Part shown: in pieces, positions 227 through 32,691 of the stretch
Numbering within the stretch: the first letter of the stretch is position 1
Layout: each line of letters starts with the position of its first letter
Origin: a plasmid
Sequence record: NZ_CP118109.1
DNA: 64,000 nt
Strand: one strand, 5' to 3'
Position numbers and translations under genes: made by a program
Notes under the pieces: model-generated
What the model was told of the DNA's origin: nothing
The model's database searches: none
What the model saw: only the letters and a program-made list of their open reading frames with translations

Positions 227-283
227 ATTTGATCCCTCCATTAAAGTTTAGTTTAGTTTCTTATACTATACCCAACCAGCAGA

Positions 284-1369: not shown

Positions 1370-1400
1370 TAGTGGCTAGGCCCCTTTCTGTGATTACGAA

Positions 1401-2627: not shown

Positions 2628-2661
2628 TGAATAGTCAACTCCTTAAATTGGTATACATATT

Positions 2662-6335: not shown

Positions 6336-6383
6336 CTCCTTTCCGAGCAAGTCACTTTATCTTAAATAATTATATATTAAAAA

Positions 6384-6397
6384 TGTAAGGCGTTACA
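6384..6397. promoter_or_regulatory. palindrome-family copy 1: TGTAAGGCGTTACA, 34 nt upstream (minus strand) of the portal start, followed in gene direction by TATATAAT
   Basis: Minus-strand reading TGTAACGCCTTACA-tttttaa-TATATAAT. Confidence 0.5.
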
Positions 6398-6403
6398 CTT
6401 GTG

Positions 6404-7672: not shown

Positions 7673-7821
7673 AAAATATGTAAGGCGCAGAGATTAGTCT
7701 GCGCCCCAGGGAAAGAGAGTTTGATGAGCCTAGCCAGAAAGGATACAGGGGATTTTTGCCTTCCACCAGGCGGCCCAATGGCCACAAGGGACAACGCATT
7801 ACTTCAGGCATTCCAGAGGAT

Positions 7822-9582: not shown

Positions 9583-9591
9583 AATATCACC

Positions 9592-9822
9592 CTAATTTGC
9601 TCGATAGAGGTTGTTTAGGGTGTGGTATCCCTTTTGAGAAAGATTGACTTCAAATCCTCTTTCTCTTTTCCTCATGTGAAGCAACCCTTCGTCAGCTGCT
9701 TGGGTCCAATTCATTTGATCGTGTAGCCCATGCGTCTGCAAATGCTTCAGTGGAACCCATTGATCGTTCCTACGACCATGAAGAAGGATCTTATTTAATG
9801 ATTGATTAGATTTTAAAAACAT
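9592..9822 (-). CDS. small hypothetical protein (76 aa) directly upstream of terL
   Basis: ORF ends 10 nt before the terL start. No motif. Could be a small-terminase remnant or spurious. Confidence 0.3.
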   Translation of the reverse strand: MFLKSNQSLNKILLHGRRNDQWVPLKHLQTHGLHDQMNWTQAADEGLLHMRKRERGFEVNLSQKGYHTLNNLYRAN

Positions 9823-9887
9823 CCTAATTCAGCACCCCTTCACTATTCATGAAGTTTGCATGAGTGCACCTCCTAGGCAGGATGTTC

Positions 9888-10283
9888 TTAATTATTCATT
9901 CCGTCTGCAATTCCGCCAATTAAAGAGCCACCTAAAGCAGCCGCTCCGTAAGTTAAAGCTTTTGATTTTCCACTTCCAAAAGCTTTTCCGTGATAACCTT
10001 TAACTGACTGGCTAAAAGACGATGCTTTTCTCATTGCCGCATCGCCAACAGTAGCTCTGGCTCTTTGTCCGTCTGTTACTGGAACCCCTGATGCATTGCT
10101 ATATCGAATATCATCATGGGCTCTTCTAGTAAACTCTCTCACCGGCTTTTTCATGCCACGCAAAGCAGCTTTTGTTCCGAATTGTGCTCCCGCAGCAAGC
10201 GTACCTCCTACGATAGCCCCACCGACAAGACCCGATCCAATACCATCATCCACGCGGTTATATGGATTGTTTGATTGCATCAT
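9888..10283 (-). CDS. Gly-zipper small protein, paralog 1 (131 aa)
   Basis: N-terminus MMQSNNPYNRV. C-terminus AAALGGSLIGGIADGM (GxxxG-type glycine zipper). Paralogous to 10295..10642. Confidence 0.55.
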   Translation of the reverse strand: MMQSNNPYNRVDDGIGSGLVGGAIVGGTLAAGAQFGTKAALRGMKKPVREFTRRAHDDIRYSNASGVPVTDGQRARATVGDAAMRKASSFSQSVKGYHGKAFGSGKSKALTYGAAALGGSLIGGIADGMNN

Positions 10284-10294
10284 TGTTATTCACC

Positions 10295-10642
10295 TCAATC
10301 ACTCATATAGTCAATTCCTGCCCCAATTCCTCCACCAAGCACAGCAGCACCAGCATAAAACCCTGCTTTCTTCCAGCCACCGCCAAACACCTTGCCATAA
10401 CCTCGCTCTACTTTTCCGCCGACTCCGACTGCTTTAGCAGTCTTCTTGGTGGATCCGTACTCCGGTAATAGAGGTGTGGAATCTTTTTTGGCTGATCTAG
10501 CTGCACTTATAAGTGAAGCTCCTTTTGCTCCTGCATGAACTACACCCATGCTCGCCGCCCCAGCCAAAGCCCCATAGGCTGCGCCATTGTAAACAGGGTC
10601 GTGGTTACTGACTCTCTGATAGGGTTCATTGCTTCTCATCAT
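10295..10642 (-). CDS. Gly-zipper small protein, paralog 2 (115 aa)
   Basis: N-terminus MMRSNEPYQRV and C-terminus GAAVLGGGIGAGIDYM are colinear with paralog 1. Confidence 0.55.
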   Translation of the reverse strand: MMRSNEPYQRVSNHDPVYNGAAYGALAGAASMGVVHAGAKGASLISAARSAKKDSTPLLPEYGSTKKTAKAVGVGGKVERGYGKVFGGGWKKAGFYAGAAVLGGGIGAGIDYMSD

Positions 10643-10659
10643 CTTTACTCACCTCCCTC

Positions 10660-11094
10660 TCAGTAGGCTTTAGATGCCCCGCGCGCATGCCTGTACATAA
10701 TGGCAGAAGCCGTGTTTCTCGCATTGGATGCATTCTGCATACCCGTCTGTTGCATATACATTTGCCCTTCATTCTGCGCGAAGCCGCCTCCAAACATAGA
10801 GGACTTCTGACGAATACCAGCCTTAGCCGCATCGGTCATCCGGATGATCTCAGGCGTCATAGATACGCCTGCCATAACCCCCATTGTAAGGAACCCACCG
10901 GGCATAAGGTTCCACGCGGCGTTAGTCAAAGCTGCTTTACCAATTGCGACAGCTGCATTCTCTCCATCTTTAATCCGAGAAACAGCATCAACTGCAACCA
11001 TCCCGGCACCGAATGCACGGGCTATCTTTCCTTCTTTTCTTATCTGATTGACGCCTTGACCAGGCGGCAACGCTTGTGTTGTCATATTGGACAT
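10660..11094 (-). CDS. Gly/Ala/Met-rich small protein, family member 3 (144 aa)
   Basis: Gly/Ala-rich hydrophobic core AFGAGMVAVDA...MPGGFLTMGVMAGVSM. Same tandem array. Confidence 0.5.
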   Translation of the reverse strand: MSNMTTQALPPGQGVNQIRKEGKIARAFGAGMVAVDAVSRIKDGENAAVAIGKAALTNAAWNLMPGGFLTMGVMAGVSMTPEIIRMTDAAKAGIRQKSSMFGGGFAQNEGQMYMQQTGMQNASNARNTASAIMYRHARGASKAY

Positions 11095-11098
11095 CTAC

Positions 11099-11458
11099 CT
11101 AGCCTCCATGCCTTAAATTGTGCAGGGCAAATACTAGGTCGCCTCTCGCAGCCAGATCTTGATTGCCGGCAGGATCGCCTAGATATCCCATGCCATCCGA
11201 TCTTGTCCCAGGAAGCGACATAATCCCCCGATCATCCATAGCATCCATTGCATTTCGATTACCTGCTTCGGACTGTCCATTTATAACCTGATATCCGCCG
11301 TAAGCTCCCATTCCTGTAAGGGCTACCGCCTTTCCTTTTCTGGATAGTCCAAATCCTGTATACAGGTTATTGATGCTTCGCTGAGTGTTCTTCTCAAACA
11401 TCGAAGGGACTTGTTTCCCTATATATTTGCCCACGTTTACAGCGCCTCTGACATACAT
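11099..11458 (-). CDS. Gly-rich small protein, family member 4 (119 aa)
   Basis: Gly-rich (ALTGMGAYGGYQV...). 4-nt spacing to member 3. Confidence 0.5.
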   Translation of the reverse strand: MYVRGAVNVGKYIGKQVPSMFEKNTQRSINNLYTGFGLSRKGKAVALTGMGAYGGYQVINGQSEAGNRNAMDAMDDRGIMSLPGTRSDGMGYLGDPAGNQDLAARGDLVFALHNLRHGG

Positions 11459-11469
11459 GTTCTCACCTC

Positions 11470-12210
11470 CTATTCGATAGGTTCGACTTCAATTGGCGTG
11501 ATATCGATCGGCTCGTTATTGCCTCTCATCTTCTCGTAATATCTTCGTTCCGCCTCATCCTCATTTTCCATGTGAGCGTCCATATCATCGTTTACCTTGA
11601 CCATCTGTGAAGCTCTCGAAGCCGGATCAAGTTCAACTGTAACCTTCGTCCCTTGCTTATCACGGCGCGTACTGTTCAAGAGCTGCAGTGTCTTGTTCTT
11701 GCTGTTTCTCAGCTTCTCTTTATACTCGACTACGGGATGCAATTCTTTCTTCACTAGCGCATCTCCGTCTTCTGTCATACCCACCACGTTCTCTATGATG
11801 AAGTCCGCATCGATTGCCATCTTGTTATCACATCTAAGCAGGGATACATCAATATCAACGAGTTCTTTAACCATGATGAGATCGACCGTATTTTTCGGAT
11901 CCTCTCGATCAATCTTGAGGTCTGTGCAGTATCGGTCAAAGAGATCTTCAATCGCAGCAATCTCAATAGGACACTTCTCGCCAAAGGGTGCCATTTGCAT
12001 TTGCATGAGAGGGCAAGACTCACGATAAGGGCAGGATTCTGCTTTACAGATGATTGGCACGGATGCATATAGCCCATGCTTTGTACTGCGAAGCCTGCGG
12101 GCGACATCTATCGCCTGTATAGCGGCAGGATTCTGTGTCCAAGCCGTAGGATTCAGGTTTTGAGAGACGACCATCTTCCCGGCTTCGGTACGAGGTCCAG
12201 TATTAGACAT
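11470..12210 (-). CDS. hypothetical protein with Cys cluster and acidic tail (possible small terminase / DNA-binding), 246 aa
   Basis: CKAESCPYRESCP...EKCP Cys cluster and acidic C-terminus. Located upstream of the packaging module. No confident motif. Confidence 0.45.
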   Translation of the reverse strand: MSNTGPRTEAGKMVVSQNLNPTAWTQNPAAIQAIDVARRLRSTKHGLYASVPIICKAESCPYRESCPLMQMQMAPFGEKCPIEIAAIEDLFDRYCTDLKIDREDPKNTVDLIMVKELVDIDVSLLRCDNKMAIDADFIIENVVGMTEDGDALVKKELHPVVEYKEKLRNSKNKTLQLLNSTRRDKQGTKVTVELDPASRASQMVKVNDDMDAHMENEDEAERRYYEKMRGNNEPIDITPIEVEPIE

Positions 12211-12213
12211 AGG

Positions 12214-12579
12214 TCACTCTCCCTCTGGAATGACGCCACAAATCTCCATGACATTCTTCCATTTCTCTTCTGTGCTATGTCCATCCCAGTTAGGCTTGAT
12301 CTCTGGCAGTGTGCCGACATCAAAGCTGTCTGGAATATGGAATGTAATCGATCCGTTGTTGATGGAAATGACACGAAGCCATCCTTCCCAATTATTATCT
12401 GTATCGTAGTACCATCCACATGGATAATAATCAGGTGTAACCTCCGACATTCCCCAAGCATTGCGAACAGTGTCATTCATATAGTTAGCCAGCAATAACG
12501 CCAGCATATTTCTTTCCCAGTAGGCTCCGTCCTTTGTTTCCTCCAGACTCATGCCCTCTTTCCAAACATATGGCTTCAT
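12214..12579 (-). CDS. hypothetical protein, 121 aa
   Basis: ORF with 4-nt gap to the downstream gene. Trp-rich, no motif. Confidence 0.45.
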   Translation of the reverse strand: MKPYVWKEGMSLEETKDGAYWERNMLALLLANYMNDTVRNAWGMSEVTPDYYPCGWYYDTDNNWEGWLRVISINNGSITFHIPDSFDVGTLPEIKPNWDGHSTEEKWKNVMEICGVIPEGE

Positions 12580-12602
12580 AACTTTTCCTCCTTGTAAGTA
12601 CG

Positions 12603-12634
12603 AAAAAAGGGGTAGATCTAATGACCCCTTGACC
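12603..12634 (-). terminator. rho-independent terminator after the par-like operon (minus strand)
   Basis: Minus-strand reading AGGGGTcattagatctACCCCT followed by TTTTTTCG. Confidence 0.55.
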
Positions 12635-12796
12635 CCGATCGGTACTGTTTGGGCAGTCTATCCCCTTAGCTTAATTGTACAGGCTCTGGTATTTTCAGGA
12701 CATTTGCGCCTATGAATGCACAAAAAAATAGAGCCCCATGAAGGGACCCTATCTTGTGTAATTCTATTTGATTTCATTTAATTCCGCTAGAAAGCG

Positions 12797-12973
12797 TTAT
12801 TTTCCTTCGTTTTGCTCCGATTCAATAGCTTTCGATAATAATCGTCTGGCTTCTGTTGCCCAATCACCTGGCTTGATCTTATCGAAATGATCTTTAATAT
12901 CTGTATCGACATCACGAATGATGACTTGGACTTTCGGCACCTTCCGTGCTTTCGTCTCTCTTTCTTCAGCCAT
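12797..12973 (-). CDS. small basic DNA-binding adaptor (ParR-like), 58 aa, not in the ORF track
   Basis: ATG overlaps the actin-like gene stop (TAATG). Translation MAEERETKARKVPKVQVIIRDVDTDIKDHFDKIKPGDWATEARRLLSKAIESEQNEGK. Order matches ParM then ParR. Confidence 0.45.
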   Translation of the reverse strand: MAEERETKARKVPKVQVIIRDVDTDIKDHFDKIKPGDWATEARRLLSKAIESEQNEGK

Positions 12974-14166
12974 TACGCTGCCTCGCTTTCGAATATATCT
13001 TTGATGAATCTTTCATAAACCTGCTCAAAGTTCAGACTGCCATCTTCCTGTTCCTTGACTTGGTTCATTGCCGCACGAATATAGAATCCATATACGTTCG
13101 CCATTTGCGGGTCGTCCACTACGGAGAAGGCTTGTACCTTACGCTTCGCAAACTCTTCTTTCAAGAAGTCTTGGAAGATATGTGCGCCCCCGCCTGAAAG
13201 CAAGATGATCTTCACACGGTTCGCATGCTGACCCCAAGACGTAATAACCTCATTTGCGATGACTGCAGAGATCTCCTTCGCGGCTTCTTCTACAAGATGA
13301 TACAGATTATGAGAAGCGCCATTGAACTCGATTTCTTCTCCACGAACGACTGAATCTAGTTCGTCATCCGTTGGGCTGTAAGCAACCCCAAACTCGTTAT
13401 CAAAGTGAATAGCCATACTCACTTTGAGTCGCTTGTACAGCTCAGCAGTCGCAAGTGTCGATCCATAAGTTCCCTCTTCCTCTACATATACGCCTTCGGA
13501 GAATAATGCATAATCTGTAGTGAGGTGCCCGATATCAACGATAGCAGTCAAAGCTCTGTAGAGCGTAGTCGTCAAAAGACCTTCTTTTGTGAAAGCGAAT
13601 TGTGTAGATGTTACACTTCCCTCTGGCTGTCTCAAGATTTCATATCCAATAACATTAATTTTCTTAGTGATTGTTTTTCCATAACCAAGGTAGATCACAA
13701 TTTCAAAACTTTGGTTTATGTACTCTTCCAACCGTGTGCGAATACCTTTATCGAAATCCTCATTCGGCAGACCAGTTGTTAAGTAGACATTATATTCTCC
13801 ATCTTCATGAGGAACACATAGTGCAAGATTGGTTTCAAACATAACTCTGAATGATGGATCGGATGCACGGTCATGATTGGTTGTCCGACTTGTAACCAGA
13901 AGCTTATTACTCTTCATTGCCTGTTCGCCTACATGATAGAAACCGTCAGTAGTCTTCACCATCAAGCGAGATTCATCGACTTCTGTGTGCTTAAAGGAAT
14001 TAGCGAACTTTTCATTTGTAGGCATGACAGTACTCGGTATGACACCGAACATGCCTAAGCTCGACATGCGCTTGCTTCCATTAAAACCAATATCAATTGC
14101 TGCAAGCTCAAAATCAAATAAGTCTTCTAGCTTTAACTTCAAATCTTTCACTTTTTTCACCGCCAT
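12973..14166 (-). CDS. actin-like ATPase (ParM/Alp-type segregation protein)
   Basis: Actin-fold motifs: phosphate-1 AIDIGFNGSK, phosphate-2 IVDIGHLTTDYALF, adenosine motif ILLSGGGA. 397 aa. GGAGG RBS. Confidence 0.8.
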   Translation of the reverse strand: MAVKKVKDLKLKLEDLFDFELAAIDIGFNGSKRMSSLGMFGVIPSTVMPTNEKFANSFKHTEVDESRLMVKTTDGFYHVGEQAMKSNKLLVTSRTTNHDRASDPSFRVMFETNLALCVPHEDGEYNVYLTTGLPNEDFDKGIRTRLEEYINQSFEIVIYLGYGKTITKKINVIGYEILRQPEGSVTSTQFAFTKEGLLTTTLYRALTAIVDIGHLTTDYALFSEGVYVEEEGTYGSTLATAELYKRLKVSMAIHFDNEFGVAYSPTDDELDSVVRGEEIEFNGASHNLYHLVEEAAKEISAVIANEVITSWGQHANRVKIILLSGGGAHIFQDFLKEEFAKRKVQAFSVVDDPQMANVYGFYIRAAMNQVKEQEDGSLNFEQVYERFIKDIFESEAA

Positions 14167-14187
14167 GATTGTTTTCCTCCTAATTCG

Positions 14188-14213
14188 ACATGTTATATCA
14201 TATTATAACATGT
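14188..14213. promoter_or_regulatory. perfect 10-bp inverted repeat ACATGTTATA-N6-TATAACATGT, 20-50 nt upstream of the actin-like gene start (candidate parC-like operator/centromere)
   Basis: Read directly. Arms are exact reverse complements. Confidence 0.5.
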
Positions 14214-14742
14214 TCTGATGTATTCTCTCGTAAACGATCATAACATATTTAATAGATACCAAGCAACCCTTAATTTGGACAACAAAAAAAGCAGCAGGTG
14301 TGCCGCCCGCCGCTTTTCGAACAAGTGAAGCTGTATGAGGTTGGAGATCTCACGTATCCTTCGCTGAGTTATATTTTAAGCCATTTGGCAAAAAATATCA
14401 AGAACGTATGTTCTCTTTTTGTGATTTCTTTTCACAGAAAAGGCTTCAAGACCGTTGCCAACGTTTCAACATATGATTTCAACACTGGAGGTGTAATTTT
14501 AACAGATAGAGGGTGGCAGTCCTATGACCTGTTGGCTATTTACTTGAAGCCCTTTTCTCTAAAAAGAGTATTGGCATACTCCGGATTATTTTTTTGTAGG
14601 AGGTGTCGTGAGCCCATGCTAAGCATCACGATTAATCCGGAGCAAACCATACTGTGTCCAGTCAGCTATTTTGAGGAGAGCTGCTGCAGTCATCTGCCAA
14701 GTCGGGTCTGTGTTCTCGACTTGAGTTTATTCTATACGATAA

Positions 14743-14756
14743 TGTAATGCATTACA
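14743..14756. promoter_or_regulatory. palindrome TGTAATGCATTACA (family copy 3) with TATA-rich boxes 6-7 nt away on both sides
   Basis: Exact 14-bp palindrome in the 690-bp intergenic region between 14166 and 14855. Confidence 0.5.
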
Positions 14757-14854
14757 ATATGATTATATATTATTTCACGCGTTTTCTCTCTTTTTTTCTT
14801 TGACGCTTTTGATTTTGCTCTATGATGTACGTTTCCTCTTGATGTGTCGCTTTC

Positions 14855-15712
14855 TTATCCGTTATTACCTGGGGTGCTGTTGCCGATGTCACTAGCAGCA
14901 ATAGTATCGCCAAGGAGCATTTGTCTCGCCTCTTCAGTCGTTTGAAAACTCGCATTTAATCTCCGTCCTCTTCCATGTCTTATTCCATTGAATTTCCGCG
15001 CCCTTGCAAGGTCACATTCGATCTGTAAAGCAATTTGCTCTGCATCCATAAATAGCTCTCCATAACTAGATGGAGCTCTTGGAGAAGGCATGATAAAGGT
15101 CTGGACTTCATGATTTCCGATTCGTGGTTTTATTCGATGACCAAAAAACTTCTTAAACGTGTTATCCAGCAATGCTGTATATGTGGACACCATAATAACA
15201 TCAGCATAGATCATAACTTGTTCCAGCCAGCTTGAATGGATCATCATAGAGTCTGCTTCATCGAATATAACCAAGCAATCGTTTAGTTCTTGTGGTGAAT
15301 ATTCCCCGATCTTCATCTCGAAAGATATCGTCCTACCATTTTCCAAGGAGAACCCATTGGATGTATAATCGTATTGGATTCCATCCTGAATAAGGCGTGA
15401 CCTTATCATATCTCTATGGGCTTGTGATGAAGCAACATACCGATCAAATACAACAACGTTCTTGTTTGACCTGATTACCTTTTCACTTAAGGCAGTAGTC
15501 TTCCCTGCTCTCCTGTGAGCAACGACCGCAATATGGCCGTTATCGCACTCATGGAACAGTCTCCAGCGTTCTTGATAGTCAGACTCTTGGACGACGATAG
15601 GTTCTCCTGTTGCCCTTGATACCCTTTGCAAATATTCCATCAATAGCTCCAAGTGTTGTCCCTCCCTTCTCAAGCTCTCTGAAACGAGGAACAACCTCAC
15701 CTTCGTACTCAA
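14855..15712 (-). CDS. P-loop NTPase resembling a terminase-type ATPase domain without nuclease domain, 285 aa
   Basis: Walker A VVAHRRAGKTTA, Walker B LVIFDEAD. No C-terminal nuclease region. Confidence 0.55.
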   Translation of the reverse strand: MSTKVRLFLVSESLRREGQHLELLMEYLQRVSRATGEPIVVQESDYQERWRLFHECDNGHIAVVAHRRAGKTTALSEKVIRSNKNVVVFDRYVASSQAHRDMIRSRLIQDGIQYDYTSNGFSLENGRTISFEMKIGEYSPQELNDCLVIFDEADSMMIHSSWLEQVMIYADVIMVSTYTALLDNTFKKFFGHRIKPRIGNHEVQTFIMPSPRAPSSYGELFMDAEQIALQIECDLARARKFNGIRHGRGRRLNASFQTTEEARQMLLGDTIAASDIGNSTPGNNG

Positions 15713-15887
15713 TAGGATTGTGCCATTCTAACAGTGGGCGATAAAATTTCTGATCAGGCTCGTCCTCACGATAGTACCAGACTGCTTTTCCATCCTCATG
15801 ACGACTTGCATCAATACCTATGTCAGATATGACATATAGTCCACCTTTGTAGTGCTGCCACCTTGATCCGATCTTCGGGGTTCTCAT
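15579..15887 (-). CDS. DUF1653-like small protein
   Basis: Motif WQHYKGGLYVIS...VWYYRED...FYRPLLEW matches the RHYKGGLYEV-type DUF1653 signature. Overlaps the start region of the downstream ATPase gene. Confidence 0.55.
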   Translation of the reverse strand: MRTPKIGSRWQHYKGGLYVISDIGIDASRHEDGKAVWYYREDEPDQKFYRPLLEWHNPIEYEGEVVPRFRELEKGGTTLGAIDGIFAKGIKGNRRTYRRPRV

Positions 15888-16084
15888 ATACTTTCACCTC
15901 CTAGGTCAGACACGTCCAGCTTAGTTTCAAAGGTTATATACTTCATGGGCTGTGCCCTTACAATGTCTAGCTGCCAAGCTCCTGATTCGCAATACATGAT
16001 AATCCTGTCGCCTTCTGCAACTATAGACTCTAAGCCAGGGAAGCTTTCGTCTAAAGCCTTCAGGACTTGATTTGCTATTTTCAT
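15884..16084 (-). CDS. hypothetical protein, 66 aa
   Basis: ATGA-type overlap with neighbours in a co-oriented operon. Confidence 0.4.
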   Translation of the reverse strand: MKIANQVLKALDESFPGLESIVAEGDRIIMYCESGAWQLDIVRAQPMKYITFETKLDVSDLGGESI

Positions 16085-16467
16085 AACTGCAGGTCCTCCC
16101 TAGCCAATTGCCAATCTCTCGCAAGCAAGTCTTCGTCTGTAAGGCTATAGCTTTTCCATCTCTGCAGCTCTTCTTTGAACATCAGGCGACCTTCGATATA
16201 CCTGTACCTTTTTCCAAGCTGTCCGCTTCTCTTTAACTTGTATCCGTTCGTAAGCATACGTATGGCAATACTAGTATCGAATGATTCCATATACTGAATA
16301 TCCACTTCTTCTGGAATAATCATGAGTGGTCTGCCTTGACCGAATCTCATTTTCCATTTGTCCGCCATTTCTTTTGCTTCTTTAAACGGCATCGAACTTG
16401 GTATCTGCATTATATAGATACCGTTAAGAGAATAAACATTATCGATGTACTTCTGCATCAGCTCCAC
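16081..16467 (-). CDS. hypothetical protein, 128 aa
   Basis: Operon member with 4-nt overlaps. Confidence 0.45.
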   Translation of the reverse strand: MELMQKYIDNVYSLNGIYIMQIPSSMPFKEAKEMADKWKMRFGQGRPLMIIPEEVDIQYMESFDTSIAIRMLTNGYKLKRSGQLGKRYRYIEGRLMFKEELQRWKSYSLTDEDLLARDWQLAREDLQL

Positions 16468-16777
16468 TTTCGCGAAACCTCCTTATCTTGTATGAGGCGC
16501 CATAGAAGTCTGGATTAGGAAGCATCATCAATTGGAATGTCCTCATAATGTTTTCCCTGTTGGCTTTCAACGTTTTACAATTTCTTATCTTCTTATCCGT
16601 GAAGTAATAGAATATGTCTCCGCCATCAGTTTCTCTACATCTCACACTGAATAGATGATCACCTGATTCAGCGATCTCTCCGGGTTGAATGTAGTAGACA
16701 ACGTCTGCAAGATTAAGCCACTTGCTTCTCGACAGTTCCTCTTTCCATTTCTCTGAATAGACCTTCATCAATTCCAA
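16439..16777 (-). CDS. hypothetical protein, 112 aa
   Basis: Operon member. Confidence 0.45.
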   Translation of the reverse strand: MELMKVYSEKWKEELSRSKWLNLADVVYYIQPGEIAESGDHLFSVRCRETDGGDIFYYFTDKKIRNCKTLKANRENIMRTFQLMMLPNPDFYGASYKIRRFRESGADAEVHR

Positions 16778-17122
16778 CTAGGCCCCCGCCTTCCTCTTAG
16801 CCTTCATCTTTTGTTTCAAGCGGCAGGAATCACATGCCCTCTTTGTGCTGTTGTTCTCTTTCCCGCATATTGTGCATAGTCCATTTGCTAAACGATATGA
16901 TCGCTTCGCTCTGGCATAGTGCACAACGCATAGTCCTTTTGAGATGGGCTTCTTATGGCACCCTTCTTCGATACACTCCGTATGCTCGTACATCGGTCTC
17001 CCTGTTCCTGCTAACACAATGGTGGGATCGTTATGCCGCTTAATTCTTCTGTAATGCTTCCAGCAGTGCCCTTTTGCGATAACTTCTTTTCCACAACGAG
17101 GAAATTCGCATATGGCTTTCAT
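16778..17122 (-). CDS. Cys-rich putative zinc-binding protein with repeated CxxGC...GLCxxHYxR modules
   Basis: CEFPRCGKEV..GHCWKHYRRIKRHNDPT, CIEEGCHKKPISKGLCVVHYARAKR, CTICGK...CDSC. Confidence 0.5.
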   Translation of the reverse strand: MKAICEFPRCGKEVIAKGHCWKHYRRIKRHNDPTIVLAGTGRPMYEHTECIEEGCHKKPISKGLCVVHYARAKRSYRLANGLCTICGKENNSTKRACDSCRLKQKMKAKRKAGA

Positions 17123-17322
17123 TTCATTACGTCTTCCTGCTGATAGACTATAGATTGTTGCGCTTCTCCCACCGTCTGCAAGCTATCTCCTTGAACATAG
17201 ACCGCATACGTATTTCGATCTATTGAATCCATCTCAATCCCAATGATTGAGATTCCCTCCTTAAGATGAAGCGCTTGCTCGAGCACTTCTTTCGTCACAA
17301 CAATCTTTCCTTGCTTTTTCAT
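17119..17322 (-). CDS. hypothetical protein, 67 aa
   Basis: Operon member with overlapping start/stop. Confidence 0.4.
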   Translation of the reverse strand: MKKQGKIVVTKEVLEQALHLKEGISIIGIEMDSIDRNTYAVYVQGDSLQTVGEAQQSIVYQQEDVMK

Positions 17323-17696
17323 TATTTGCTTGCCTCCAATTTATGTTCGTCTTCTTCTGCGCGCTTTTTAAGATAATGCCTCCTGCATAGCTTTCTTGCT
17401 AGAGCTGGTTTGCTGCACCCCTCTTCAATACATTCGCAATCGTTATTGGACTTGCCACCGATCATGTATTGATTACATCCCATTTCTTTTCTTCGATTCT
17501 TTGCATAGCAATTAGGGCAGAGGCCGAGCGCTTTCACTTTGTTAATACCACATGCTGAGCAAGACTTTGGTCTATCATAATCTTGCTTCTCGTATGTTGG
17601 GTCTCCGTATAGCCATTTCCTCCGATAGTGTTTTGCACAAAGCCCTGTTGATCTAACATGCTCGTTGCATCCTTCAATCGCGCATTCTTTTGACAT
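17322..17696 (-). CDS. Cys-rich putative zinc-binding protein, paralog of 16778..17122
   Basis: CAIEGCNEHVRSTGLCAKHYRRKWLYGDPT, CSACGINKVKALGLCPNCYAKNRR, CIEEGCSKPALARKLCRRHYLKKR. Confidence 0.5.
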   Translation of the reverse strand: MSKECAIEGCNEHVRSTGLCAKHYRRKWLYGDPTYEKQDYDRPKSCSACGINKVKALGLCPNCYAKNRRKEMGCNQYMIGGKSNNDCECIEEGCSKPALARKLCRRHYLKKRAEEDEHKLEASK

Positions 17697-17729
17697 TACA
17701 TAGCTCTCCTCAGTACATGCGTGTTTGTA

Positions 17730-18260
17730 TTATTTTTTGTTTACGAATCCCGTTGCTACGTTTAAACCTATTAGCATATCAGGGTTCACGCCTTCATCAA
17801 ATACAACAGGAGTATCTTGGTCAAACCCTTTCACACTTGCATCGAAAACCGACATAATGCGATCATATTTTGATTGTTCTTTTAATGCCTCTGCAATACT
17901 TCTGTGTCTTACAACAACGATACCTTCGATATCTTTAGCAAACTCAATCAAAGCAGTTGTTTTTCCGACTTGTCTGAGATATTCATCGACATAAATATAA
18001 TTATGATTTTCGGCAGCGTGAAGTAATTTATTCTTGATCGTCATGAGCATCATGGGCCTCAAAGCTTCTCGCAGATCGTCCGACTTCTTCTCTTCTTTTT
18101 TAATTAAATCAAATGACTTTTCAATCGTGCCGCTATCTCCTTCGTGTTTTTCAATAGCTAACATAATCTGCCCATTTGTAGGATACTGTTCGAATGGTCC
18201 TTCTGTTTTGATATAACCGCCGTCTTTTGATATGTGTATTAAGAATGTTTCTTTTAACAT
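17730..18260 (-). CDS. small P-loop ATPase, 176 aa
   Basis: Walker A LRQVGKTTALIEFAKD. First gene of the minus-strand operon, downstream of the palindrome at 18305. Confidence 0.5.
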   Translation of the reverse strand: MLKETFLIHISKDGGYIKTEGPFEQYPTNGQIMLAIEKHEGDSGTIEKSFDLIKKEEKKSDDLREALRPMMLMTIKNKLLHAAENHNYIYVDEYLRQVGKTTALIEFAKDIEGIVVVRHRSIAEALKEQSKYDRIMSVFDASVKGFDQDTPVVFDEGVNPDMLIGLNVATGFVNKK

Positions 18261-18304
18261 GGATAATCATTCCTTTTTTATTTTTTTATTTTCTATACTC
18301 AAAT

Positions 18305-18318
18305 TGTAATGCGTTACA
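18305..18318. promoter_or_regulatory. palindrome TGTAATGCGTTACA (family copy 4) in the divergent control region
   Basis: 46 nt upstream of the minus-strand gene start at 18260, 185 nt upstream of plus-strand 18504. TTGACA at 18326. Confidence 0.5.
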
Positions 18319-18503
18319 TTTTATTTGACAACAATTAAATTTTCTATAGGGGGCAATTTTCTATAAAAAAATTTTTGCGTGGGGTACCTAGTTGTTTATT
18401 GTTGGCTGATGGTAGCGTTCGACGCCCCACCCCCTCAACAATAAGCAACCACATTAGGGTTGGCAGTGATCCCAATCAAACTGCACATCGAAAGGAGTCT
18501 ATC

Positions 18504-18992
18504 ATGACTAACACATTATCAGCTATTGCTAACACTATGGGAGAGGACGCTGTTCTTAAGACTGCATCAGCTTTAGGTATTGCATGGAGAGTAACAAAGA
18601 ATGTAGCAGGCTTCGTATATAAGAACCTTATACATAAGCCTATTGTTAAGGCAGCTAATGTAATACGTAAGCATAAGTGGGAAACAGCTGCTACAGCAGC
18701 CTCTGCTGTAGTAGGTGGTGTAGCCACTACTAGCGTATGTGGTGCAGGGTTGATGGCTGCTGCTGTAGCTATGGTTGCTGTACTCACTATCCATTTCCTT
18801 ATTGCTAAGCGTAAGAAGCAGGCTATGGACTGGCGTAGAGCTATCTTATCAGCCATGGTATGCGGTCTTATAGCAGGGTTCCTGCCTGTAATATCTGTAT
18901 ACCTAACGATGTGGGCATGCATTGGTCTTGACTATGCATGGCTTGCATCTGCATATACGTATCTCTACACTGCTGCTTTGTTCGTGATCTAA
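18504..18992 (+). CDS. membrane protein (3-4 predicted TM helices), 162 aa
   Basis: AAAGGAG RBS then ATG 18504. Hydrophobic stretches VVGGVATTSVCGAGLMAAAVAMVAVLTIHFLI and AMVCGLIAGFLPVISVYLTMWACIGL. Confidence 0.5.
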   Translation: MTNTLSAIANTMGEDAVLKTASALGIAWRVTKNVAGFVYKNLIHKPIVKAANVIRKHKWETAATAASAVVGGVATTSVCGAGLMAAAVAMVAVLTIHFLIAKRKKQAMDWRRAILSAMVCGLIAGFLPVISVYLTMWACIGLDYAWLASAYTYLYTAALFVI

Positions 18993-19359
18993 TAGGTCAT
19001 GGACATGGCATGGTATAGATGCATAGGGAGTACACGATAACGGTGGATGATCCCCTATGTAGGCTATACCCTCTACCCTACCTTATATGGTGGCATGGGT
19101 GGCAGTACTATGGTTAGCCATATTGTGCCTATGTATATGGGCATATGGGTGTGTAGGTGCACTCTATCATATACAGCCCCTGTGTAGTACGCATGGTCCG
19201 GGTCAGCCGCCCCCATGTGTAGTATGCAGGGGTCTTTTTATTTATTTACACATAGCTCCCTGTATAGGTGCCCTATATAGACCCCCCTCTATATGGACCC
19301 CCCTATATAGGGAGCTGTATGTAAGTACAGCACATTTAACCCCAAGGAGGAATCACTCT
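18993..19359. repeat. repeat-dense non-coding block: TGTGTAG-type iterons, tandem (A)CCCCCCTMTATAKG repeats, and AGCTCCC/GGGAGCT inverted repeat
   Basis: cccctgtgtagtacgcatgg (19177-19196) and ccccatgtgtagtatgcagggg (19211-19232). CCCTATATAG at 19271 and 19301, CCTCTATATGG at 19287. AGCTCCC at 19254 and GGGAGCT at 19310. Confidence 0.6.
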
Positions 19360-22300
19360 ATGTCAACTGATTCAAAGAAAGCTATGTCGTCCGTCCCTAT
19401 GTCCAACAAACAAACTAAAACAAACAAAAAGGAGCAATCTACAATGACTAACAACAAACAAGCACAAATCAACAAGCAACTGGCTGAGGTAAACCGTCTT
19501 TTCAACAAAGCTATCAAAGGTAACAAACTAGAGGCGCAAATGTCTGATTACAAGTCTACTTCTGTAGTATTGGATGCTATTGCTGAGTTCCCAGGATTGG
19601 GCGTTAAAACAAAGAATTATGAGGCTATCACAGCTGCTATCGCTAGTGGTAAGGATATCCGTACTGTTATGGAGAACCCGGAGCTTACTGGTGTTCCTAA
19701 GAATCAATATCGCTTCTTCCGTGCATTCATGGAAGAGAAAGGTGCAGAGATTCCTGCTATGGTGATTGCACCTACTCGTAAGCGTGTACGTACTGTATCT
19801 GTCGATCTATTGAAACATTCCCGCAACGAAGCTGGTGAAGTGGTGCTCAACGCGGAAGTCAGCTATCAATCTCAGTCTCAGCTTGCTGATGCATTCGGTA
19901 AATTGGTTCCAGCTACAGATAGCAATGATCTACACTTGGATGCGACTCACATTGTCTATATCGATTTGAATATCGCTGATCAAGAGAATCAAGAAATGAA
20001 AGACTTGCAAATCGAGATCGTCCGTAATGGATTCTATTACACAGTGGAAGGCGTTACACGCAAAGCTAACTTCTTTATTCAGACAGCAAATCAAACTCGT
20101 CAATTGCAAGGTATCTATATTGCAGAGGACTTCATGACGATTCCTCAAGCATTCCGCAAGCTTGGTCATAGCTTCCTGTCTTATTGCAAACTGGATAAGG
20201 CTACTGGTGTCTATACACTGGATATCACGAAGTATCTGAAACGTCCAGGTCTGTCTGGTACAAGCTCTGTGCCATCTAAGGTAGTAACCTTCCCTAATGC
20301 TCATATCGACAAGCTGCCTAACATGAGAACAGGAGAATACTTGGTTAACTCTGATCGTCACTCTATGGCAGTGATTGATGATCGCTTTGCTAAGATCAAG
20401 AATGGTAAGTTCAAAGCATTCTATAACAACCGTGTAGTCACTGTATCTGCGGTTGATGGTACATTCACAGCTACATGGAAAGAAGGACGCATGACTAAAG
20501 AAGAAGTCCTGCCTATGAACTATCTGAAGCTTGGCGTAGGCGATGGCTTGGTTCTAGCTTCCGAGTCGATCTACTGGGCATTGAAGGCTGAGTTTGGCAA
20601 TGATTCCGATGCATGGCAAGTACGTATCACCCCATTCGTTAAAGGCTTGATGGTATTCGTGCCAGGCTTGCGTCAATACTATGATGCAGATATCGTTGCA
20701 TTCAAGTCTGCTGTGAAAGGTGACTTCCGTTTGCTTGCTGATAGCGAAGGTAAGATTGACTTTGGTATTGAGCTGCGTATTGCACGCTTTGCTAAGCGTC
20801 CTGCTATGAAGTCTGAGTATGTAGAGCTTCCATATCAGTTTGCACATGTATCCAGCATTACAGCAGAGCAAATGATTGATGTTGCTCAACCACGCCTGGA
20901 TGAAGCTAAGAGTGTACTTACTAATCCTGCACTGATTCAAAAGTATGCAGGGGTTGCTCACTTGGAGAAGCTGAACAAGCTGACTCTTGCACAAGCTGAG
21001 TTTCTACGTGATCGCTCCCTTGTTTCTGTATTTGCTAACTTCATGCACTATGCTCCATTCACATTCCAAGATGCTTACATGCAAACAAGAGCACTGAGAC
21101 TGATGGGGCAGCAAGTAGACAAATGGGTTGCTGGTACGATTCCTGTAGAAGGCGAGTATCGCTTCATGGTTCAAGATCCATATGCATTGCTTCAAGCTGT
21201 GGAAGATGAGAATGGAGATATGATTGTCCCTGATCACGTTGGTCTTAAGCCACACCAAACATTCATGACAGCACGCGATAACCAACACTTTGTAGAGGGC
21301 CCTGTTGCATCCTTCCGTAACCCTGCTATTGCTAAAGGTGAAGGACGTATCTTGAATGGTGTAGCTCCACAAAACTATGTGACTGCTTCTGCTAAAGGCG
21401 CATTCAACTCTGTATGTGTAATGAGCTGCCATGACTTGGATACATTCGCTGAAGGCGGAGCTGATAACGATGGTGATGAAACATTCATTACACAAGTACG
21501 TGCTATCGTTAATGGCATCATGGGTAAAGATGGTCAATCTAAGTTCTTGGCTATGCTTGACCTGCATGTAGATAAAGATGGTGAGTGGTCTTCTGGATGC
21601 CCGTTCCCTATGGAATCTGATGAGAAGCTTGCATTTGATGCTCCTTGCGTATCACACGATGGACAATTCAAAGTGAAGTTCACTGCCGATCAATATAATG
21701 ATGCATTCATTCAAGCTGTACATGAGCTAAGCAAAGAGTATGTCATTCGTACACTGACTCCTAACAAGATCGGTCAACTGACTAACATTGCTACTCGTCT
21801 TGCTGATGCTGTACGTAAAGTAGGATATATGTATGCAGAGAATACCAATGAGTTTGGTCAAAAGACTGAACGTTCAGATGCTGAGAAACAAGAGCTGATT
21901 AGAGAGATCGCTCGTATGGAAGATATGATCGACTTGATTCGTCTGGCTCAAGGATGGGAGATTGACCGTGCTAAGCATGGTGGTGCATATGAGGAAGCAT
22001 TGGCTGCTGAATTGGAGTTCATCAACAATCCTCCAAGATATGCAGGATTCCAAGAGTCACCTAAATCCAAGCGTCAATGGATCAAGCAAGCATGGCTCGC
22101 ACATCACAAAGGTGCTGAGGGTGGAGTAGACACAGGTTCTGTAATGTCCCGTGTGCATAACCACATGAAAGCATTCGTACAAGAGAATGTAATCGACAAG
22201 TCCGAAGAGATCATGAACGATGTAGAGAACAACAACCTGATTCATATCCTGAGAGCTGAGTATGTTATTGATCCAGTTATCTATGACAGAATCGCTAACT

Positions 22301-22992
22301 CTATTCGTTCCATTCGCTCTATCTATACAAACGACATCAAGAACGCTCGTCAGAAGCATGAAGAGTTCATCAAGCTTGCTGAGCTGAAATATGGTGAGGC
22401 TGATCCTGCACTGGCGATGGCTAAAGAGAAGATCGAGCGTATCTATAGAGATGATTGCGATGCGATCACCTATAAGAGTCAAATGACACTTGGCGCTTTG
22501 GAGTTCTCTTTCTCTGCGACTGATATCGGCTATGTTGCATACATGGTGACATACACTGAGAGAGGTCAAGATAACAATCGTTCGATCAGCTTCCCTTGGG
22601 TCGTGGCTAAGAAGCAATTCTTGGAGCTGTGTGCTGCTATCTCTAATCGTGAGATTGTGAAGAACCCTTATGTTGTCCCTGCATCTGATATCAAGGCAAA
22701 CTTCCGTATTGGGGCTGATTCAACTGGTCGTGTGTTTGATGGAGAGAGAATGGCACCTGTCATTGCGAATGCAGGTATGGTAACAGTGGAGTATATGTAT
22801 AACGAAGTTACTGAAAGCTACATGTATGTTGTTTATGTTCCAGTAGGCAGCAGAAATGTATATGTAGGCGACTTCTACCAAGATCAAGTTGGATTCTTGA
22901 CTGGTGCAACACGTTTCAATCTTACAGTGTCCAATGCTGAAGCTAAAGGCAGAACTATGAGTCTGACGATCTCCAGCATCGAACGCATGTAA
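19360..22992 (+). CDS. giant protein (1210 aa); candidate single-chain two-barrel RNA polymerase (YonO/QDE-1-like)
   Basis: AAGGAGG RBS plus ATG 19360. Internal FRNPAIAKGEG ...(about 45 aa)... GADNDGDETF resembles the beta-prime NRxPxLH...NADFDGD double-psi-barrel signature. Candidate beta-like K-G segment PFVKGLMVF...KSAVKGDF. Confidence 0.4.
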   Translation: MSTDSKKAMSSVPMSNKQTKTNKKEQSTMTNNKQAQINKQLAEVNRLFNKAIKGNKLEAQMSDYKSTSVVLDAIAEFPGLGVKTKNYEAITAAIASGKDIRTVMENPELTGVPKNQYRFFRAFMEEKGAEIPAMVIAPTRKRVRTVSVDLLKHSRNEAGEVVLNAEVSYQSQSQLADAFGKLVPATDSNDLHLDATHIVYIDLNIADQENQEMKDLQIEIVRNGFYYTVEGVTRKANFFIQTANQTRQLQGIYIAEDFMTIPQAFRKLGHSFLSYCKLDKATGVYTLDITKYLKRPGLSGTSSVPSKVVTFPNAHIDKLPNMRTGEYLVNSDRHSMAVIDDRFAKIKNGKFKAFYNNRVVTVSAVDGTFTATWKEGRMTKEEVLPMNYLKLGVGDGLVLASESIYWALKAEFGNDSDAWQVRITPFVKGLMVFVPGLRQYYDADIVAFKSAVKGDFRLLADSEGKIDFGIELRIARFAKRPAMKSEYVELPYQFAHVSSITAEQMIDVAQPRLDEAKSVLTNPALIQKYAGVAHLEKLNKLTLAQAEFLRDRSLVSVFANFMHYAPFTFQDAYMQTRALRLMGQQVDKWVAGTIPVEGEYRFMVQDPYALLQAVEDENGDMIVPDHVGLKPHQTFMTARDNQHFVEGPVASFRNPAIAKGEGRILNGVAPQNYVTASAKGAFNSVCVMSCHDLDTFAEGGADNDGDETFITQVRAIVNGIMGKDGQSKFLAMLDLHVDKDGEWSSGCPFPMESDEKLAFDAPCVSHDGQFKVKFTADQYNDAFIQAVHELSKEYVIRTLTPNKIGQLTNIATRLADAVRKVGYMYAENTNEFGQKTERSDAEKQELIREIARMEDMIDLIRLAQGWEIDRAKHGGAYEEALAAELEFINNPPRYAGFQESPKSKRQWIKQAWLAHHKGAEGGVDTGSVMSRVHNHMKAFVQENVIDKSEEIMNDVENNNLIHILRAEYVIDPVIYDRIANSIRSIRSIYTNDIKNARQKHEEFIKLAELKYGEADPALAMAKEKIERIYRDDCDAITYKSQMTLGALEFSFSATDIGYVAYMVTYTERGQDNNRSISFPWVVAKKQFLELCAAISNREIVKNPYVVPASDIKANFRIGADSTGRVFDGERMAPVIANAGMVTVEYMYNEVTESYMYVVYVPVGSRNVYVGDFYQDQVGFLTGATRFNLTVSNAEAKGRTMSLTISSIERM

Positions 22993-23571
22993 TAGGCGAG
23001 CCACCTATATCTGTAGTCGGCATGTTCCTAGGCATGTCGGCTACTCCTTTATTATAGCACACCCTTCGGGTAGGTGCTAACGCCATCGACAGCTCCACGC
23101 TTCCACCCTAAGACGCCCTGCCCTTTGCAGATGACGAATCATACTACTTGTAGGATGCTTTCGTTAGACGCGAAGGCAGGATGCTTATATGGGACATGCA
23201 TGGACGGCAACTTACGGCAATACAGCTAGACAGCTGAATCATATGAATATAACGTCCGGTGGGGGAGGAAGCTGCTTCGCAACGTGGACGCTGATCTATA
23301 TGAGCAAGCTCTTTCCCTATGTTGTCGATGGCTGTTATCACCTATCCGAATCGTGTGTAATCTCAAGTGTGACGCTACTTTATGTACGATGACTTATATC
23401 ACAGAGAGCTACATCCTGCTGTATATCATACTTCGGATGCTATATTCCCTATTTCGTATATCATATGCTACTGAAAGTGGTGAACCCTCATCCGAAAATT
23501 TTCTTCATCCTGCGTATGATTATCTTATGTGCTCTATAGTGTATGACGATGTAATAGATAGTGCAGACGAT

Positions 23572-23601
23572 GGTCGCTAACGCTCCTGTGGCATTGTGAA
23601 T
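23572..23601 (+). repeat. conserved junction element A: GGTCGCTAACGCTCC-TGTGGCATTGTGAAT
   Basis: Shares CTAACG-N8-GGC-TT-T-GAA spacing with the copies at 36216 and 46715 and with the hairpin copies. Confidence 0.5.
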
Positions 23602-31736: not shown

Positions 31737-31988
31737 ATGTTAACTGCTGTCGCACAAGAGAAAATGACCGATGATCAAGCCAAACAATACCTTGATAATA
31801 TGTCCGCTTATATCGAGAATGCTTCATTTGATATCGAAACTGAAAGTAATTTGCTTACTCATTGGGTGTCCGAACAGATCAAAGATATTCCTGAAAGCGC
31901 ACTCAAATTAATGCTCGTTGACTTATTTGTCAAAAATCAGCATCTCAAACAAGAATGCATCAGACAATCAGCATCCCTCTTTTTCTAA
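31737..31988 (+). CDS. hypothetical protein, 83 aa
   Basis: Adjacent ORF with 1-nt gap. Confidence 0.45.
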   Translation: MLTAVAQEKMTDDQAKQYLDNMSAYIENASFDIETESNLLTHWVSEQIKDIPESALKLMLVDLFVKNQHLKQECIRQSASLFF

Positions 31989-32084
31989 GTCGGCTTGGCG
32001 ACTATAAATAGGCTTTTGGCCAAGCGCGGGCTCCCAACTCGGGAGTATAGCAGTACCATACTATATTTAAAGGAGTGTCATATC

Positions 32085-32294: not shown

Positions 32295-32691
32295 AGATTC
32301 GTTTCCCTATATGGGATAACTAAACCATTGCATAGGGTTTTAAAGGTTTTATGCTCTGCCTCATTTGGACAGACCTCTCCCAAAGGCCGATTATTTATGT
32401 ATCTTACTAATGAATGTTACTCTCAATAGAATGAACTGACGATTCTATACGATAGCTCATTCTATTAAAGGTAGCTGCCGTTTTTGCTCCACCTTTTTAT
32501 TTTTCTATCTACATCAGAAGTAAGCTAACTCTTGAATTGAATGTAATCTATCTATTCTTAAGTAAGCTTGCTTCTATATATAAAGAATTACCGGAAAACA
32601 TAGGGTATATACACCCAATCCTAAAACGTTCACAAATTGTACACATACTGTTCGTGTAATGTTCTATTCCAGTGGAGGGAGGCTAACTAAA

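Follow-up and report, generated by a model that had tools for sequence, protein, structure and literature searches.

The 367-nt spacer in front of a phage RNA polymerase gene very probably carries a functional structured RNA. It lies in a 64,000-nt stretch of the plasmid sequence record NZ_CP118109.1 (hereafter, the window, with positions counted from its first nucleotide), between a gene for a small membrane-type protein and a gene for a YonO/QDE-1-type single-subunit two-barrel RNA polymerase. The structured RNA, which we call module 1, is a pseudoknotted fold of ~235 nt. Behind it lies module 2, a long inverted repeat built around palindromic sites and tandem units. We consider the chances about even that the spacer as a whole is transcribed and serves as a control leader of two modules between the two genes. 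An earlier reading of the same stretch, made from its letters alone (the sequence-only reading), had proposed that this region is either a replication origin or a strong multi-site regulatory region. The sequence features that it listed are all present where it placed them, and comparison with related loci changes what most of them appear to be.

We compared the spacer with the loci of polymerase homologues of 32-80% identity taken from public assemblies, which are denoted below by locus numbers (L001 and so on). Nearly all of them have the same layout, in which a small membrane-type protein gene is followed by a long spacer and the polymerase gene. The nearest relative, L001, has a polymerase 80% identical to that of the window, and its DNA identity to the window is 64.5% in the membrane-protein gene, 83% in module 1, 93.5% in module 2 (the best-conserved segment of the locus), and 78.5% in the polymerase gene. 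The noncoding modules are conserved as much as or more than the flanking genes in this relative. Farther away, in L009 (polymerase 47% identical), the first ~235 nt of the spacer can still be aligned; both arms of the terminal hairpin P6 are entirely different in sequence there, and their pairing is retained.

Two successive covariance models, R1 and R2, score module 1 in the window at 247.8 and 235.2 bits, respectively, and find no other copy within the 64 kb. Full-length matches at the syntenic site are present in L001, L009, L006, L005, and L013, whose polymerases are 43-80% identical. Among them, L006 and L005 were matched by R1 with 73.9 and 37.9 bits, and by R2 with 195 and 110 bits, while L013 scored 43 bits with R2. 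In L015 and L018, R2 matches the P2 hairpin alone, and inspection reveals the core motif in L007, L010, and L019. These partial matches point to more diverged forms of the same RNA.

The pairing of the helices is preserved by compensatory changes. When the window, L001, and L009 are aligned simply with MAFFT, without fitting to the model, 91% of the cells are paired and 12 pairs have changed on both sides, compared to 32-55% paired cells in slid controls; this is the conservative figure for covariation. A five-sequence alignment (A6) has 93.9% paired cells and compensatory changes in 37 of the 61 pairs, a level reached in none of 500 shuffles, with the reservation that fitting the alignment to the model inflates its pair counts. 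Run on this model-fitted alignment, RNAalifold yields the same helices, a check that is not independent of the alignment.

The fold is also specific to one strand. The spacer (18993-19359) folds better than shuffled sequence (z = −4.85), and in module 1 the + strand is more stable than the − strand by 7-28 kcal/mol in six of six loci. The helices contain 32 G-U pairs versus 2 A-C pairs. Both asymmetries indicate an RNA with the orientation of the polymerase gene. Compensatory change above controls, together with strand specificity, is the general hallmark of a structured RNA, and module 1 displays both, in few sequences.

The structure, which was drawn by hand, consists of the long hairpin P2 (P2a, P2b, P2c, and an apical stem), hairpins P3, P4, and P5, and P6 with an inner stem (Table 1). 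It begins within ~15 nt of the stop codon of the membrane-protein gene. In P2 (helices 1 and 2), 95-100% of the cells are paired and 10 of the 16 pairs show compensatory changes. The apical C-stem covaries as well (CAC/GUG in the window, CAU/AUG in L006, and CGU/ACG in L015). As judged by inspection only, the apices of L006 and L015 follow the kink-turn consensus (GA, C-stem, loop GAUGACG, C-stem, GAU, GA), and L018 shares their apical sequence. In the window, L001, and L009, UA replaces the non-bulged GA, giving A-U at the 2b-2n position, and the apices of L005 and of the L007/L010/L019 group lack the C-stem and have a short loop-like form.

The pseudoknot is paired in 94.3% of the cells of A6 versus 16-58% in slid controls, it comprises 7-8 bp in seven loci at a constant distance of 19-25 nt (the register in L019 was adjusted by eye), and it is filled by three unrelated sequence pairs: AUAUGGU/GCCAUAU, GGUCAACC/GGUUGGCC, and AGGUGAC/GUCACCU. 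The loop of P5 is conserved as G(U/C)AGG(U/A)G in the window, L001, L009, L006, and L005 and, by eye, in L013. P6 is very stable (19176-19233, −38.7 kcal/mol, z = −7.0), and 16 of the 19 pairs of this helix (helix 6) have compensatory changes.

Table 1. Positions of the elements of the spacer and of the surrounding genes in the window
Feature	Position	Strand	Composition or basis
Module 1, pseudoknotted structured RNA, ~235 nt	19005-19240	+	Covariance models, covariation, strand-specific folding
P2, long hairpin	19012-19070	+	
P2a	19012-19018 / 19064-19070	+	GGTATAG / CTATACC
P2b	19020-19024 / 19057-19061	+	TGCAT / ATGTA
P2c	19025-19028 / 19053-19056	+	AGGG / CCCT
P2 apex, kink-turn-like	C-stem 19033-19035 / 19043-19045; bulge 19046-19048; GA 19049-19050	+	C-stem CAC / GTG; loop GATAACG; bulge GAT
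P3, hairpin	19073-19102	+	CTACCC (19073-19078) / GGGTGG (19097-19102); helix 3, 96.7% paired, 5/6 pairs compensatory
Conserved CAGTA after P3	19103-19107	+	
Pseudoknot	19085-19091 / 19117-19123	+	P3 loop ATATGGT pairs with GCCATAT
P4, hairpin	19124-19145	+	TGTGCCT / GGGCATA; helix 4, 90-95% paired, one U-A to C-G compensatory change
P5, hairpin	19147-19164	+	GGGTGT / GCACTC, conserved loop GTAGGT; helix 5, 100% paired, 3/6 pairs compensatory
P6, 20-bp imperfect hairpin	19176-19247; arms 19177-19196 / 19213-19232	+	Inner GGGT/GCCC stem; conserved apical sequence GGGTCAGCCGCCCC; then TCTTTTTATTTATTT
Module 2	19243-19327		26-nt-arm inverted repeat around four CCCTATATAGGG-like palindromic sites, with tandem 16-nt units
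CCCTATATAGGG-like 12-mers	19258-19269, 19271-19282, 19285-19296, 19301-19312		Spacing 13-16 bp; the last is a perfect palindrome
Spacer, 367 nt	18993-19359		Between membrane-protein gene and polymerase gene
Ribosome-binding site (RBS) and start codon of polymerase gene	19344-19362	+	AAGGAGG 19344-19350, ATG 19360; sequence; public gene call (1210 amino acids [aa]) begins at ATG 19360
YonO/QDE-1-type (Pfam RdRP family) polymerase gene, 1210 aa	19360-22992	+	Translation; motif GGADNDGDE
Small hydrophobic membrane-type protein gene, 162 aa	18504-18992	+	List of open reading frames, translation; 162-aa gene in public assemblies
Left arm genes	1-18260	−	Terminase, portal protein, ParM/Alp7A-type actin

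P6 closes module 1 in the manner of a terminator. On the + strand, the stable hairpin is followed by the U-tract of UCUUUUUAUUUAUUU, the anatomy of an intrinsic terminator, and in this phage it is therefore predicted to act as a strong one. A simple terminator scanner missed it because the loop exceeds the scanner's 8-nt limit. A U-tract also follows P6 in L001, L006, and L013, the last of which has two terminators in tandem. In L006, the terminator and the next RBS are separated by ~45 nt in which no promoter is recognizable, and this short gap favors regulated read-through.

Module 2 has a different character. Matches to CCCTATATAGGG with up to two mismatches are expected 1.3 times in the whole window, and five of the six that it contains are clustered in 19053-19312, one of them (19053-19064) inside module 1. 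The tandem units reported by the sequence-only reading are 16 nt long (19273-19288 and 19289-19304) and 94% identical, and the AGCTCCC/GGGAGCT inverted repeat that it saw around them is larger than it claimed, with 26-nt arms (19243-19268 and 19302-19327) that are 85% complementary. The resulting hairpin has a folding energy of −49.1 kcal/mol on either strand (z = −7.1 on the + strand and −4.5 on the − strand), and, being equally stable on both, it has no asymmetry of the RNA type. In L009, the long hairpin is lost (z about −1) and the palindromic units are retained. Module 2 is probably either an operator/promoter array, to which a dimeric DNA-binding protein would bind, or a hairpin at the 5′ end of the polymerase messenger RNA (mRNA) that is specific to the lineage. 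The idea of a strong multi-site regulatory region is partly right, as it suits 19243-19327, where four palindromic sites are clustered before the gene.

We also considered a resemblance to a T7-like promoter (CTATATAGGGAG) and rejected it: TATAGGGAG-like 9-mers occur 20 times against 10.9 expected, which is marginal, and the others look like RBSs or coding sequence. Nothing points to a T7-type polymerase. Separately, a motif of ~17-30 nt, (GRGGTTTCATSCT)CTTGGCGGGRCTCATGC, is found 3′ of the structured RNA in L015 (2867-2883, + strand), L005 (3862), and L018 (2839), in shorter or variant forms in L006 (3446) and L013 (2523), and in weaker variants in the window (TAGGGAGCTGTATG at 19308) and in L007, L010, and L019 (ATGGCGAGCTNTAAYGAG). 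A second, inverted copy lies in another intergenic region of L015 (7197-7213, − strand), and none in the 64-kb window. Besides that inverted copy, a scan of viral contigs returned nothing beyond chance matches, which lie at the gene starts of high-G+C phages. This motif may mark a promoter, such as a phage-specific one, or a binding site.

We propose the following scheme for the spacer. Initiating within the AT-rich divergent region (near 18260-18500), host RNA polymerase would transcribe the membrane-protein gene, the leader RNA would fold co-transcriptionally, and P6 would stop most transcripts. Entry into the polymerase gene would then be governed either by attenuation or antitermination, with a factor or ligand acting on the folded leader, or by a regulated start in module 2, and the synthesis of the phage polymerase, and hence late transcription, would be timed. 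Because an enzyme of the YonO kind transcribes the late genes of SPbeta (PMC5467207), gating the synthesis of the polymerase would gate late transcription. We place the likelihood that module 1 acts in cis on the expression of the polymerase gene slightly below one-half. The sequence-only reading had set a simple 5′ untranslated region against its own proposals; the sequence evidence points towards a transcribed leader, and towards one that is complex rather than simple.

Two further conjectures go beyond this scheme. Tentatively, module 1 may found a new class of phage regulatory RNAs, in which a ligand- or protein-sensing attenuator or antiterminator would serve as a riboswitch-like checkpoint that times a YonO-type polymerase and with it the late switch. 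More boldly, it could be a dedicated RNA partner of the polymerase (template, primer, or specificity factor). The analogy here is with retron and DRT systems, whose noncoding RNAs (ncRNAs) adjoin reverse transcriptase genes, as module 1 adjoins a gene of an RdRP-family polymerase.

Several observations weigh against the scheme of a control leader. The position of the RNA is fixed more closely relative to the upstream stop codon than to the start of the polymerase gene, and open reading frames (ORFs) are present between the two in L001 (57 aa), L006 (143 aa), and L013 (two small ones); given these inserted ORFs and the upstream tie, a free-standing RNA would suit the data as well as a leader. 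The U-tract after P6 is absent from L009, L005, and the L007/L010/L019 group, and the P6 apical loop keeps its sequence, so that P6 appears to be primarily a part of the functional core, with termination not universal. No conserved pairing that could serve as an antiterminator alternative to P6 was found by inspection, the sole candidate being 7 bp between P5 and the 5′ arm of P6, weak and absent in L009. The family is small, at ~10 distinct sequences. As for module 2, the window and L001 differ there at only ~6 positions, too few to gauge covariation, and no sigma-70-type promoter was detected in 18993-19359, module 2 included.

The alternative that survives best, which we regard as possible without favoring it, is that module 1 is a free-standing, trans-acting ncRNA that arises at the 3′ end of the upstream operon, its own end being set by P6 or by processing. 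It would act elsewhere rather than on the adjacent gene, for example on RNA polymerase (that of the phage or of the host), to which it could be a partner, a decoy, or a specificity factor, or as an anti-defence RNA. In every locus the RNA begins within ~15 nt of the upstream stop codon, while ~120 to ~600 nt, with ORFs inserted, separate it from the polymerase gene. A 3′ hairpin with a U-tract has the look of a small RNA gene, although this terminator is not conserved in all members; P6 and its loop are conserved as a core, unlike a variable expression platform, and no alternative pairing was found. Such an RNA would, however, have no promoter of its own that is recognizable just upstream, and the strict synteny with the polymerase gene across ~10 loci suggests a functional link, which is not necessarily one in cis.

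We consider it improbable that module 1 is instead a new self-processing or RNase-directed processing element that separates the polymerase mRNA from the upstream transcript. The presence of a Pistol ribozyme in the window and of a type III hammerhead ribozyme in L006 indicates that RNA self-cleavage seems to be used in the operons of these phages, and module 1 is large and pseudoknotted and has invariant unpaired nucleotides. Yet it has no match to an Rfam ribozyme even at E values up to 10, and no cleavage site is identifiable in its sequence, which leaves an argument by association alone.

Less probable still is the explanation that the whole region is an array of repressor or activator sites on the DNA, built on CCCTATATAGGG-type palindromes, with the RNA structure as a by-product. 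The clustering of the palindrome matches, one of which falls within module 1, and the equal folding of module 2 on both strands are in line with it. In module 1, however, the helices keep their pairing despite a complete change of sequence in L006, L005, and L009, G-U pairs are frequent, the strand asymmetry is strong, and a pseudoknot and a kink-turn-like apex would be meaningless at the DNA level. The explanation is viable for module 2 only, where the control-leader scheme already includes an operator.

A replication origin, which the sequence-only reading had based on iterons, AT-rich tandem repeats, and palindromes, is very improbable in the spacer, dense as its repeats and palindromes are. 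The supposed iterons are strands of RNA helices: the one placed at 19151 is the P5 loop, conserved in sequence, and those placed at 19181 and 19217 are the 5′ and 3′ arms of P6, in which the pairing is conserved and the sequence is not, as L009 demonstrates. Of the "three or more" copies, only two are exact matches to TGTGTAGKA (19181 and 19216), and the third, TGTGTAGGT at 19150, fits approximately; at least two copies arise in 13 of 100 shuffles, and the count is not significant alone. What had been described as a near-duplicated 22-mer is indeed a direct repeat (20-mers at 19177-19196 and 19212-19231, 85% identical), but it is also an inverted repeat (19177-19196 and 19213-19232, 80% complementary). 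The complementarity of these arms exceeds 80% once G-U pairs are allowed, and UGUGUAGUAYGCA is nearly self-complementary with G-U pairs; the duplicate is a quasi-palindrome, the two arms of one hairpin. An iteron array would have at least three direct repeats of ~17-22 bp, evenly spaced and all oriented alike, that are conserved in relatives, whereas here there are two 20-nt copies, each the reverse complement of the other. The excess of G-U over A-C pairs and the strand-specific folding energy show that selection acts on the RNA.

The composition of the region speaks against an origin as well. G+C content is 47-49% across 19000-19350, above the phage average, and the sole AT-rich stretch is the 15-nt T-tract after P6. 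There is no unwinding element in the spacer, no TTATCCACA-like DnaA box (with up to one mismatch) in 17096-21566, and no adjacent initiator (Rep) gene, the flanks being the membrane protein and the RNA polymerase; initiators elsewhere in the genome were not surveyed. On the other side, the cumulative GC-skew minimum lies near 18 kb, ~1 kb to the left of the spacer, and a ParM/Alp7A-type partition protein points to plasmid-like functions somewhere in the phage genome. This minimum, however, falls where gene orientation flips (18260/18375), together with a trough of 20-25% G+C at 18200-18350, ~700 bp to the left of the spacer. The AT-rich, divergent region 18200-18350 is a better candidate than the spacer for early promoters or a nearby origin. 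The divergent intergenic region (18200-18400) also contains a direct repeat of TTTTCTATA (18340-18348 and 18360-18368) and leftward sigma-70-like promoters.

Finally, an N-terminal extension of the polymerase from ATG 19087 can be practically dismissed: a frame is open from there into the polymerase gene, as the sequence-only reading observed, and the public record of L009 calls a similarly extended gene, but the start has no RBS, the frame is broken by 1-, 2-, and 5-nt indels relative to L001, in which stop codons and a distinct 57-aa ORF intervene, the substitutions follow RNA-pair covariation and are not codon-like, and the true start, as that reading also held, is the called ATG 19360, 9 nt past AAGGAGG, with noncoding sequence upstream of it.

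The assignment of the polymerase gene depends on its family. The protein of the window alone is below the Pfam threshold and has no PHROG match. PF05183 (Pfam RdRP) is matched by 8 of 13 family members (best E value, 2e−17), the catalytic motif GGADNDGDE is invariant across the family, and a profile of the family could be aligned to the YonO homologue of Spbetavirus BUCT082 (hhalign probability of 86%, E value of 5e−6, 425 columns, DxDGD motif aligned). On these three grounds, we conclude that 19360-22992 encodes a polymerase of the YonO type. Isolated-phage DNA gave no blastn match to 18300-20300, and tblastn with the polymerase returned only distant RdRP-like Enterocloster phage genes. Very little is known about the control of single-subunit two-barrel polymerases of this type; the paper that characterized YonO left open its promoter and any cofactors (PMC5467207).

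The window is part of a large phage of ~190 kb. In its left arm, the actin-like partition protein of the ParM/Alp7A type (12973-14166, − strand; Pfam ALP_N, 1e−24; PHROG 691, "partition protein") suggests plasmid-like segregation or a phage cytoskeleton, and L001 has one too. The 162-aa membrane-type protein has no Pfam or PHROG match, and a gene for a protein of 146-209 aa occupies the equivalent position in L001, L005, L006, L007, L009, and L010. Directly 5′ of the polymerase gene, L006 (3481-3912), L016, and L017 encode a conserved protein of ~140 aa with the pattern GTDF..GVPIDVT..R.GN.HH.F..PV.V..FD, possibly a polymerase accessory factor. Past the polymerase stop codon of the window, 22993-23600 includes a stretch of ~550 nt without a convincing ORF, and 20 nt past that stop codon lies a 14-bp hairpin, GTAGTCGGCATG...CATGTCGGCTAC (23013-23044, + strand).

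Two ribozymes were identified among these loci. The Pistol self-cleaving ribozyme of the window (31988-32052, + strand; Rfam RF02679) scores 47.3 bits against a gathering score of 34.5, and a palindrome-like site, CCCTATATGGGA (32305-32316), lies ~250 nt 3′ of it. The type III hammerhead ribozyme of L006 (2612-2666, + strand; RF00008, 49.4 bits) is directly 5′ of the homologous membrane-protein gene. The analogous region 5′ of the membrane-protein gene of the window (18240-18560) has no Rfam match at E values up to 1.

Parts of module 1 have look-alikes elsewhere. In an otherwise unrelated viral contig of 28.9 kb (IMGVR_UViG_3300029448_000295, L027), positions 700-790 contain a P2-like hairpin in miniature, GGCAGGGTGAAATGATATATCCCTGCC, together with a hairpin like P3 and GCAGTA, and a near-consensus sigma-70 promoter follows. 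The 5′ domain of the RNA may exist as an independent module. Another viral contig (L028) has the apical motif AGGGTGAAATGATATATCCC at 10926-10945, directly 3′ of a transfer RNA gene (10853-10923). This may be coincidence, or the hairpin motif may be portable. A third match from the motif scan for further family members, in L031, was rejected as a false positive in coding sequence.

We suggest that module 1 is a candidate new family of structured RNAs without an Rfam match, tied to a poorly understood class of phage polymerases. A large covarying RNA fixed beside the polymerase gene in a clade of ~190-230-kb phages offers a testable handle on the control of YonO-type polymerases. Its combination of a kink-turn-like motif, a pseudoknot, and a terminator is an architecture typical of riboswitches and protein-sensing leaders. 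There is also a more general lesson: dense "iteron-like" direct repeats can be the arms of RNA hairpins that tolerate G-U pairs, and comparison of relatives distinguishes the two.

No known RNA family accounts for module 1. With Rfam 15 at the gathering threshold, the whole window yields only the Pistol ribozyme at 31988; at E values up to 10, the region 18850-19450 yields only sub-threshold noise from microRNA or small RNA hairpins, and 12 homologous loci yield nothing at the syntenic site. We found no description in the literature that links a structured RNA to YonO-like genes. A parallel in context is the unannotated ncRNA at a YonO-dependent late promoter of SPbeta (PMC5467207), which is likewise linked to the transcription program of a YonO-family polymerase. 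That RNA is ~65 nt long, lies downstream of yonO-yonN, and heads the late operon, whereas module 1 is upstream of the polymerase gene. Homology between the two was considered and rejected, given that R2 found nothing significant in the yonO-yonK region of Bacillus phage BUCT082 even with filters off, and RF03075 has no match in 18850-19450. In BUCT082 itself (MZ969646.1, L033), a DUF3800-VIII RNA (RF03075, 47.5 bits) is present at 8632-8697, in a 1.7-kb noncoding stretch between an HU-like gene and yonK, and it is probably the "unannotated non-coding RNA" of SPbeta (PMC5467207).

Among leaders that sense proteins, the Bacillus subtilis rplJL leader bound by L10(L12)4 (PMC4538822) resembles module 1 in being a structured leader with a kink-turn-type motif and an intrinsic terminator before the regulated gene, in a Bacillota-type setting. 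The two have no similarity in sequence or model. Module 1 is larger and pseudoknotted, no alternation of terminator and antiterminator was found in it, and some of its members lack the terminator.

Riboswitches of the SAM-I, T-box, lysine, and c-di-GMP-II types, in which a kink-turn, a pseudoknot, and a terminator occur together, share with module 1 a length of ~200-250 nt, several helices, a loop that pairs with a downstream single strand, a 3′ terminator hairpin, and a position upstream of a gene. Module 1 differs from them in having no Rfam riboswitch match (E values up to 10) and no closing P1 helix, and its gene context suggests no ligand. Its terminal hairpin is conserved in sequence and is not a variable expression platform. 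Its fold is conserved and complex, and no conserved pairing exclusive with P6 was found.

The put RNA of phage HK022 (~70 nt, two stem-loops) and the EAR RNA of B. subtilis (~120 nt) are cis-acting RNAs of processive antitermination. Both are structured operon RNAs, of a phage or of Bacillota, that lie upstream of terminators and timed genes, EAR between cistrons. They are smaller than module 1 and unrelated in sequence, the Rfam family of EAR has no match to module 1, and module 1 contains the first terminator within the conserved RNA.

Iteron origins (lambda ori, P1 oriR, and those of the F/R6K type) resemble the spacer in their dense short repeats and palindromes, in being noncoding, and in lying near a switch of gene orientation. 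In the spacer, by comparison, direct repeats are too few and unconserved, an unwinding element, a DnaA box, and an adjacent initiator gene are missing, and what is conserved is the base pairing of an RNA.

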